Position numbers: made by a program
Assembly: GCF_041248615.1 (NCBI RefSeq)
Contig: NZ_CP158426.1
DNA length: 64,000 nt
Source: Escherichia coli
GTDB taxonomy: Bacteria; Pseudomonadota; Gammaproteobacteria; Enterobacterales; Enterobacteriaceae
Strand: one strand, 5' to 3'
Part shown: in pieces, positions 15,001 to 18,000 of the stretch
How positions within the stretch are numbered: the stretch's first letter is position 1
How the letters are laid out: each line of letters opens with the position of its first letter

Positions 15001-18000
15001 GGCTGTTACCCGCCTGATTGAGTTGCTTTAATGCGTCACGGGAGTTTCTGATTGCGCCAGCCAGCTCTTTCGAACTGGCCTGTGCAGCACGGAATGGGCG
15101 GGTGAGTTTGTCAACCGCATTAAGAATGACCTGCAGCCGCAGGTTATTATTACTCATCGTTGGCCCCGCTTCTCTGAATCGCTTTATACCGCCATTCCAG
15201 CACTTCGGTCAGCGGCATAACGTCAGTAACGGATGGCGGCCAGTGAAAAATGGTGGCGATATCTGCCACCAGAGCGTCAACCGTCAGGCTGTCGGTAAAC
15301 CGGCAAGCACCGACTTCTTCAACAAAAAAGTGACAACCTCAACCGACATAGCTGTGAGATCTGCCGGGTCCATCTCTGCGATTTCCTGTGCAGTCAGTGC
15401 CGGACTGGAAATGCGGGGGATCACGGTCATCATCGCGTTCACATCCATATCCATAATGGCCTGCAGGCGTGTACCGCGCAGCGCACCGGACTGCGGTTTA
15501 CGCAACACAATTTCGGTAATTTCTGTTTTACCGCGCATGATGGGGGTATCCAGTTGAATGGTCTTTTCAGTCTGCTTATCGCTCATTTTATTGTCCTGTA
15601 AATTGGGTTCTGGCGCGGTATCCCGCGCCGTTCAGATACATCAGAGGCCGAGGGCGTTGCGGTGCGCTTCCATCAGGTCCACACCGTCCACAATTTCCAC
15701 CATGTTGATAAGGTCCACTTCATAGAGCACCTCACCATTGATAGTCAGCTTCGCGTAGCTGTTGGTACTGGTCACTTTGGTGGTGTTGCTTTCGCCCGTC
15801 TTCCACTCACCGGAATCCACTTCTTTGTGACGTCCGCGCACCACAAGCTCCACGGCCTGCACTTCCCCGGTATCGTCACGCTGGATAGAGCCGGTAAAGC
15901 GCAGCTGGATGCCATCCACCGTGGCTTTGCCCATCTGCTTAAACAGCAGCAGTTCAGTACCACCAATGGAAAATTCTGTATCCAGTGCACTGTCATCCAG
16001 TCCCAGATCCACATCCACCGCCCCCGGCATTCCGCCGCCGCGATACTTCTCATATTTGCGGGTGAATTTCGGCAGCGTCAGCGACTCAACGATCCCCTGC
16101 CAGTTATTCCCGTCGTTAAACAGGTTCAGGTGTTTTAATTTACGTGGTAAAGCCATGTTGTCCCCTTACGCGCTGACCTGGCTGGCGAAATTCACCAGGT
16201 ACTGATCGGTGATGCGCTGACGCAGCATCAGGTTTTCAAGTGGTGGCACTGGCGTGTAGTCGTAATCGATGGTGAGTTTTCCGGCTTTCAGAGTGTCTTT
16301 GTCGTTCACCGACTCATCCAGCCAGCAATCGCCACCAATGAGATAGCCCTGACTGACCAGGCTGCGCATTTTGGCGCGGATACCTTCGATAATGTCCCGG
16401 GCCAGCGACGGGTTAAGCGGTTTATCCACCGCCCACATGTGTGCTTCTGCCATCGTGTCCATCAGCACCTGCGCCGTGCGGGTGTAGTTTTCGAAGGCAA
16501 AGAGCGGGTCATCACTCAGGCAGCGGGAACCCCAGAAGCGGAAACCGTCTTTGCGGATAAGGGTGGTGACGTCGTTCTGGTTCAGCAGACCTGCATCGGT
16601 TGCCGGGTCCTGCAGATCCCAGAACACATCTGCAGAAATTCCGGTGACACCGTTCACGCCCACGTTGGACAGGCTTTTGTGCCACCCAGTCTGCTCATCA
16701 ATTTTGGCACGCAGACCAAGCGCACGGGCGGTGGCATATGCCGTTGCTTCGGCATTCAGCACCGTGTCCCAGCCAGTAAAGTCGGGCCAGATCAGCATTC
16801 CTTCGCGCTGGCTGAAGTTTTCACGGTAAGTGATCGCCTCCTGCACCGTCTTGCAGCCATACGCTGACAGGTAAGCAAACCCACGCAGGCTTTGCGCCAC
16901 ACTCAGCAACTCAGTAGCAACGGCTTTGTTATCGTGACCTGGCACGCCGAGAATGCGCGGTTTAACGCCGAGCTGTGTCTGGGCAGATAACAGGGCTTTC
17001 ATGCCTGTTTTTTTACCTTCAGCAGTCACTGCGCCGATGATATTGGTCGTGGTTTCTTCTTCCGCTTCACCCTGCGGCACACGCACAACAACGGTCACGG
17101 GTTTTGCCTGGTCAGCGATGGCGTCCAGCGAACGGGCCAGCGTACCGGACTCACCCGCTTTACCGCTGGCAGTCAGCACATCAGTGATCAGCACTGGTTT
17201 ATTAAGAGGAAACATTTTTGCATCGGCATCATCGCCCGTGCAGACCATACCCACGATGGCGGTGCTCACCGTGGTAATGGATCGGGTGCCTTCGTTGACT
17301 TCAACAACGCGCACCCCGTGGTGGTAATCCTGAGCCATAGTGGCGAACCTCCTGATTGGATTAGGCTTCGCCCTATGTTGAAGTGATTGTGCCTGACAAA
17401 CAGCTAAGCGCAGTTGTACCGTTATTCACACAAAATGACGGTATTTGTCTGCTTGCAGGGATAATCAAAATTATGCTGATTCAGGGGGATTCATTGCTCT
17501 TATTTGCCGGAAATTTTCTATAAATGGTAGAAACGCCTACATCAAAAATCAGTGCAATACGCTGTCTTGATTCTCCGGCCTCGAGTAAACGTCCAATCTG
17601 TGCCCACTGTTCAGTGGTCAACTTAGGACGGCGTCCACCTACTCTGCCTTTAGCACGAGCTGCAGCCAGCCCTGCCCTGGTACGTTCAACTATCAGTTCG
17701 CGTTCCATTTCAGCCAGGGCACCCATGACATGAAAAAAGAAACGGCCCATTGGGGTACTGGTATCAATACTGTCAGTCAGGCTTCGGAAATTCACACCAC
17801 GCTGGCGCAACTCTTCTATCAGCGTAACAAGATGCCGCATACTGCGCCCCAACCTGTCCAGCTTCCAGACAACCAGCGTGTCTCCTGCCGATAGTGTCCT
17901 GAGCAGCTTTTTCAGCCCCGGTCTGTCGGACTTGGTGCCACTGATTTTATCCTCAAAAATCCGCTCACATCCCGCACAGTTCAGTGCATTGCGTTGCAAA

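Follow-up and report, generated by a model that had tools for sequence, protein, structure and literature searches.

The tail operon of a P2-like (Elveevirus-type) prophage raises the question of how its small reading frame E' is expressed: as a gene of its own, as it is annotated, or as an extension of the upstream chaperone gene E reached by a programmed -1 frameshift. The locus was analysed in a stretch of 64,000 nucleotides of Escherichia coli DNA, called the window below. Synthesis of E and E+E' through a programmed -1 frameshift was retained as the main reading, with a probability of about 93 %. It is carried by the anatomy of the site in the sequence, by homology and conservation, and by the signs of coding seen in each of the two frames. 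The interpretation given in the initial annotation, a conserved tail chaperone frameshift of the P2 type, was supported here. The E/E' frameshift is already known biology, a textbook recoding event, and the present case is ordinary in that respect.

According to the ORF list and Pfam, the P2-type tail operon is transcribed from right to left, on the minus strand of the window. All E/E' features lie on that strand, which the initial annotation had left unstated. The sheath gene (17338..16166, minus, from the ORF list) is followed by the tail tube gene (15641..16156, minus), a homologue of P2 FII (Pfam PF04985 Phage_tube, E = 8.8e-60) that RefSeq labels 'phage major tail tube protein' and that is located directly upstream of E. 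Gene E (15284..15586, minus) encodes the zero-frame tail assembly chaperone of 100 aa, identified as an ORF and by PF10109 and phrog_103. Further downstream are the tape measure gene T (12080..15157, minus; 1025 aa; Pfam PF10145 PhageMin_Tail), gene U (12083..11598, minus) and gene D (11601..10501, minus). The E/E' pair sits between tube gene FII and tape measure gene T, and E' ends within the start of T.

The slippery heptamer T_TTT_TTG (15323..15329, minus) is the presumed site of the shift and displays the X_XXY_YYZ phase: the codons of E are ACT TTT TTG, the first T of the heptamer being codon position 3. The zero-frame stop of E follows 14 codons after the heptamer. A slip of -1 opens exactly 57 codons, which form the E' extension (15150..15323, minus) and end at TAA 15152..15150. 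The initial annotation had noticed a TTTTTTG near the 3' end of E and an open -1 frame of about 57 codons, and both were found as described. Its claim that the -1 stop overlaps the start codon of T was correct for the genes, which share 8 nt (ATGAGTAA), but not for the stop itself: the TAA lies just past the ATG of T (15157..15155) and not on it. The E+E' product, thought to be roughly 140 aa long, has a predicted length of 145 aa.

Most ribosomes translating E would stop at 15284 and release the chaperone E of 100 aa. A minority would slip back by one nucleotide on U_UUU_UUG through tandem slippage, the P-site tRNA-Phe moving from UUU to UUU and the A-site tRNA-Leu from UUG to UUU; these ribosomes would then read the 57 codons of the -1 frame up to the TAA and yield E+E' of 145 aa. 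We infer here the ribosomal nature of the shift, its efficiency and the binding partners of the products. From the homology with P2 and the parallel with lambda G/GT, the tape measure protein T would be the expected partner of the shared E part, and the E' domain would be expected to recruit the tube protein FII, so that the tube could polymerise around T and its length be set. Neither E nor E+E' would be expected in the finished virion. For lambda, PMC5009743 summarises work on G/GT that attributes tape measure binding to the short form and tube protein binding to the extension.

Protein homology covered both parts of the predicted product. PF10109 (Phage_TAC_7) matched residues 9-88 of E+E' (E = 2.4e-18, above the gathering score), and PF06528 (Phage_P2_GpE) matched residues 107-143 with its entire profile (positions 1-37 of 37; E = 2.9e-18). 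The two Pfam domains occur together in the frameshifted 145-aa product only. E was also matched by phrog_103 ('tail', E = 3.6e-42), while phrog_1756 corresponds to residues 85-145 of E+E', from the slip site to the end, and spans the junction region, where the predicted peptide is ...VVTFLVEEVG... (SVEVVTFLVEEVGACR). No NCBIfam model matched E or E+E', a PDB sequence search gave no match, and Foldseek against the PDB returned nothing significant.

A complete count of in-phase X_XXY_YYZ heptamers, covering 65 non-overlapping ORFs of the window, gave 68. The -1 extensions behind them have a median of 8.5 codons, and only four of the 68 reach 57 codons. Two of these four, at 13256 and 13205, lie deep inside T, and their -1 ORFs stop before the T stop. 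The -1 open frame of E/E' exceeds chance, since so few heptamers of the window extend over 57 codons and since PF06528 is matched over its full length. Heptamer G_GGG_GGA (12092..12098, minus), located five codons before the T stop, was considered as a recoding site and rejected: the -1 frame there is that of gene U, which overlaps T, and the heptamer is the Shine-Dalgarno (SD) sequence of U (AGGGGGGA).

RefSeq (PGAP annotation of this genome) and many phage records present E' as a separate 'GpE family' CDS of 39-40 aa, without a slippage join with E. In the window this CDS, a 'GpE family phage tail protein' of 39 aa (15150..15269, minus), starts at GTG 15269, and a separate E' CDS was found at the same position in comparison loci L001, L003, L004, L006, L008, L010, L014 and L095. 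An E' translated from that GTG without recoding would agree with these annotations and also with PF06528, which covers the last 37 residues only. The GTG is the first start codon of the -1 ORF and is preceded by a weak SD (-3.7 kcal/mol); this poor ribosome-binding site is not decisive, because the SD of E's own ATG is equally weak (-4.0 kcal/mol). The segment between heptamer and GTG argues against a gene starting at the latter: its -1 frame is open in 95 of 95 loci, although the distance from heptamer to core varies from about 17 to 35 codons, and its peptide is alignable and partly conserved in enteric relatives (VEEVGACRFTDSLTVDAL versus VAELGAVTFPKNLSVDDL in P2), becoming more variable in distant ones. 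The span of phrog_1756 and the retention of an in-phase slippery heptamer even where its sequence differs point the same way, as does the E+E' fusion in P2, which is reported as shown by secondary sources (PMC3931495 and PMC3091744). An independent E' is thus quite improbable, and the 39-aa CDS of RefSeq is probably an annotation artefact. Because E' is listed as a free-standing gene and not as a slippage join, protein databases lack the true product of 145 aa as far as this lineage is concerned.

The fused 145-aa product was used as a tblastn query against 50,697 phage records. It matched 419 of them, and 384 of these 419 displayed at least 80 % query coverage at one place, the match being split in almost every case into two pieces that lie in different frames. 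Hosts included Escherichia, Klebsiella, Salmonella, Yersinia, Burkholderia, Ralstonia, Pseudomonas, Vibrio, Mannheimia and others. A diverse comparison covered 15 loci, the window and 14 relatives. All 15 displayed an in-phase canonical heptamer, followed by a -1 frame open over 52-70 codons. The heptamer was T_TTT_TTG in 11 of them; the other four, which are distant, displayed T_TTT_TTC (Vibrio VP58.5), T_TTT_TTT (Zymomonas plasmid), G_GGA_AAG (Mannheimia) and C_CCT_TTC (Klebsiella Kp4847-1).

The closest elements were Escherichia phages Cartapus and 500465-1 and the Klebsiella Kp48xx prophages (Peduoviridae, Elveevirus and relatives). Their 561-bp E-E' region is 96-97 % identical to that of the window at the nucleotide level, with heptamer and flanks identical; they differ by a few substitutions only, essentially none of them at the site. 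Their records list E' as a separate CDS and not as a slippage join. Most close relatives end E' with TGA instead of the TAA of the window. A close copy was present in 999 of 5,426 complete E. coli genomes, about a fifth.

A second set was composed of 80 IMG/VR relatives sharing 84-97 % identity, which together with the window represent 72 distinct sequences; it gives depth rather than breadth. TTTTTTG was found in 79 of the 80 and TTTTTTA in one, at a constant codon position. In the region belonging to E only, variable sites were concentrated at E-phase position 3 (62/81, versus 19/82 and 10/82 at the other two). Past the E stop they were concentrated at position 3 of the E' phase (27/44, versus 11/43 and 5/44 at positions 1 and 2), and variability was suppressed in the 55-nt overlap of E and E'. 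By this switch of phase and the suppression in the overlap, both frames are coding where expected and both are under purifying selection.

These patterns also bear on the possibility that an ancestral single E-E' gene was broken by an indel of one nucleotide, the heptamer being coincidental. The prophage comes from a clinical isolate of E. coli, a setting in which pseudogenes occur frequently, and the nearby nfsA is annotated as frameshifted. The same split is nevertheless found in P2 and in hundreds of functional phages, an in-frame fusion of both parts was encountered in no relative examined, and both frames bear the marks of purifying selection. Family-wide conservation excludes pseudogenisation, and a decayed gene was regarded as the least probable of all explanations.

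One apparent in-frame E-E' fusion, in Ralstonia phage RSY1 (L009, NC_025115), was rejected: the annotated ORF lies in the -1 frame, and the true E frame displays T_TTT_TTG. The 156-aa 'tail protein' ORF30 (352..822) follows the -1 frame throughout the E region. The true E frame is devoid of an ATG near the conserved N-terminal region, and the nearby ATG (ATGGAAAAAAAATCGG) is in another frame, beside a run of eight A. This suggests that ORF30 is a mis-annotation, and possibly that the sequence contains a homopolymer error.

The homopolymer at the heptamer itself could also act at the RNA level, if RNA polymerase slipped on T6 and added one U to some transcripts. A run of six is short for efficient transcriptional slippage, which counts against this explanation. 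Longer runs do exist: T7 was found in some relatives (ST11-OXA245phi3.1, Zymomonas plasmid), and T7G and T7C are mentioned for Smp131-like phages in PMC3931495. The relatives with G_GGA_AAG and C_CCT_TTC, however, lack a homopolymer and still display a canonical tandem-slippage heptamer in phase. The phase is kept in 95 of 95 loci, which transcription would not need, although conserved Phe-Leu coding contributes to this as well. Slippage during transcription was considered even less probable than an independent E', and a shift on the ribosome remains the preferred reading.

A ribosomal shift may be stimulated by RNA structure downstream of the heptamer. Over the 58 nt and the 98 nt that follow the heptamer, minimum free energy folds did not surpass those of shuffled sequences (z = +0.61 and -1.03), RNAalifold on 10 diverse relatives gave a consensus of -1.6 kcal/mol with four weak pairs and without covariation, and Rfam at a permissive threshold gave chance matches only. 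By these three approaches no conserved hairpin or pseudoknot was found 5-9 nt past the heptamer, and a downstream RNA structure was rejected as stimulator, in agreement with PMC3091744.

Upstream of the heptamer, at a spacing of 7 nt, is an SD-like GAGGT (15336..15340, minus), considered here as a candidate 5' stimulator. Its predicted duplex with the anti-SD (-10.3 kcal/mol) is stronger than those of the ribosome-binding sites of E, FII and T, and this value is attained by about 0.8 % of the 10-mers in the tail operon. An SD-like motif is located at the same place in all 11 loci with T6G (AAGGTGAT, GAGGTGGT, CAGGTGATC and others in relatives, including the positions in L001-L010), ranking in the top 0.4-2.3 % of each locus's own background. 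None of the four loci with other heptamers has it at the 7-nt spacing. Among the 80 close relatives (72 distinct sequences) the GAG codon never changes while neighbouring wobble positions vary, and four of five enteric lineages use a G-ending codon at the motif; this synonymous evidence is only suggestive of selection on the motif. The motif also overlaps the conserved (E/K)-V-(V/I) codons. Coding constraint is therefore a sufficient alternative, and the motif could equally be a by-product.

Reporter data give this motif its interest. Nearly all members of the P2 family shift at U_UUU_UUG. In E. coli reporters, this heptamer allowed frameshifting of only 0.118 % by itself, and the strong 3' stimulators of IS911 and IS3 brought it no higher than 0.247 % and 0.765 %, respectively (PMC4066793, Table S3); the same paper places upstream SD stimulators in a spacing window of 6-17 nt, which includes the 7 nt of GAGGT. 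The efficiency of P2-type frameshifts is given as 2- to 3-fold above lambda's 1:30 ratio, roughly 3 %, in a review (PMC5009743). There is thus a tension between a heptamer that is weak in reporters and the high efficiency reported for P2 in the absence of a downstream structure. The conserved internal SD-like motif might be the missing stimulator, a 5' element of the dnaX kind acting alone; this candidate role is tentative and rather doubtful. If true, it would explain how a heptamer weak in reporters reaches a useful frequency without downstream structure.

Other parts of the prophage and its flank also displayed noteworthy features. A tail-fibre segment of 1.84 kb (18112..19951) is inverted with respect to RefSeq chromosome NZ_LT599825.1, which otherwise shares 100 % identity with the window. 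Imperfect inverted repeats (18103-18134 and 19932-19963, core TTGGTTTGGGAGAAG) border the segment, and a serine recombinase gene (Resolvase and HTH_7; 17481..18053, minus) lies beside it, the whole region extending over 17481..19963. In the orientation of the window, tail fibre H is 466 aa long (19599..20999, minus) and has its own assembly protein. In the flipped orientation an intact alternative H of 501 aa is formed, which PGAP breaks up into two fragments of pseudogenes, giving one of these the name 'integrase'. This invertible segment is a host-range switch of the Mu G / P1 C type within a P2-like prophage.

Between replication gene A (37150..39564) and the portal gene are two cargo genes (32833..36293, minus) that are not P2 homologues. 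One encodes a RES-domain protein (32833..33987, minus); the other encodes a P-loop NTPase of the KAP family (34350..36293), for which PADLOC gave a match to candidate defence system PDC-S49 (E = 3e-156). Their position is that of a known anti-phage defence hotspot of P2. An ORF of 304 aa (23471..24385, plus) lies antisense to the late operon, between an S-like virion morphogenesis gene and baseplate gene V. It had no Pfam or PADLOC match, is hypothetical in RefSeq and may be another cargo or moron gene. On the host side, the nitroreductase gene nfsA (about 6195..6906, minus) is frameshifted according to RefSeq, an ORF of only 202 aa being found in the window. Strains that lose nfsA move one step closer to resistance against nitrofurantoin.

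Three known systems offer a comparison. Like E. coli dnaX, the present site combines a canonical heptamer with an internal SD-like sequence upstream, within 6-17 nt. It differs from dnaX in that the latter has a strong downstream hairpin, whereas no conserved hairpin accompanies the site of the window, and in that the dnaX frameshift product is the shorter one. The SD spacing is about 10 nt in dnaX versus 7 nt here, where an SD role is a candidate one.

Lambda G/GT represents the general tail-assembly-chaperone frameshift of long-tailed phages, reportedly described by Levin in 1993 and by Xu, Hendrix and Duda in 2004, 2013 and 2014. The slippery heptamer of lambda is G_GGA_AAG. No sequence similarity between lambda G/GT and the E/E' type is reported in PMC3931495. 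In contrast to lambda, the prophage of the window is a contractile-tail phage.

The closest parallel is phage P2, and the arrangement was already recognised in the initial annotation as that of P2 E/E', which the comparison bore out. E and E+E' of bacteriophage P2 are said to have been treated by Christie et al. in 2002 (J Bacteriol 184:6522); what is stated here about P2 is drawn from its RefSeq record and from secondary sources. P2 differs from the window in sequence, with identities of only 42 % in E and 54 % in E' (57 residues), in its upstream SD-like motif (AAGGTGGT instead of GAGGT), and in length, E being 91 aa versus 100 aa and E+E' 142 aa versus 145 aa. E of the window is longer because its zero-frame stop lies 14 codons past the heptamer, as compared to eight in P2. 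As to P2 itself, PMC3091744 places the shift at TTTTTTG, with products of 91 aa (E) and 142 aa (E+E') and without downstream structure, and says the same of structure for Burkholderia P2-like phages. Both P2 and the window lack significant or conserved RNA structure downstream. They share the gene order FI-FII-E-E'-T-U-D, the two Pfam domains (Phage_TAC_7 and Phage_P2_GpE), a 57-codon -1 extension and the ATGAGTAA overlap with T. The E/E' arrangement is described as conserved among P2-like phages in PMC3931495. According to secondary sources, P2 produces the fusion as a constant proportion of E and cannot assemble its tails without E'. In the RefSeq record of P2 (NC_001895, P2p25/P2p26), E is annotated together with a two-piece E+E' join and a 'site of -1 translational frameshift', placed at a heptamer identical in sequence and phase to the T_TTT_TTG of the window.
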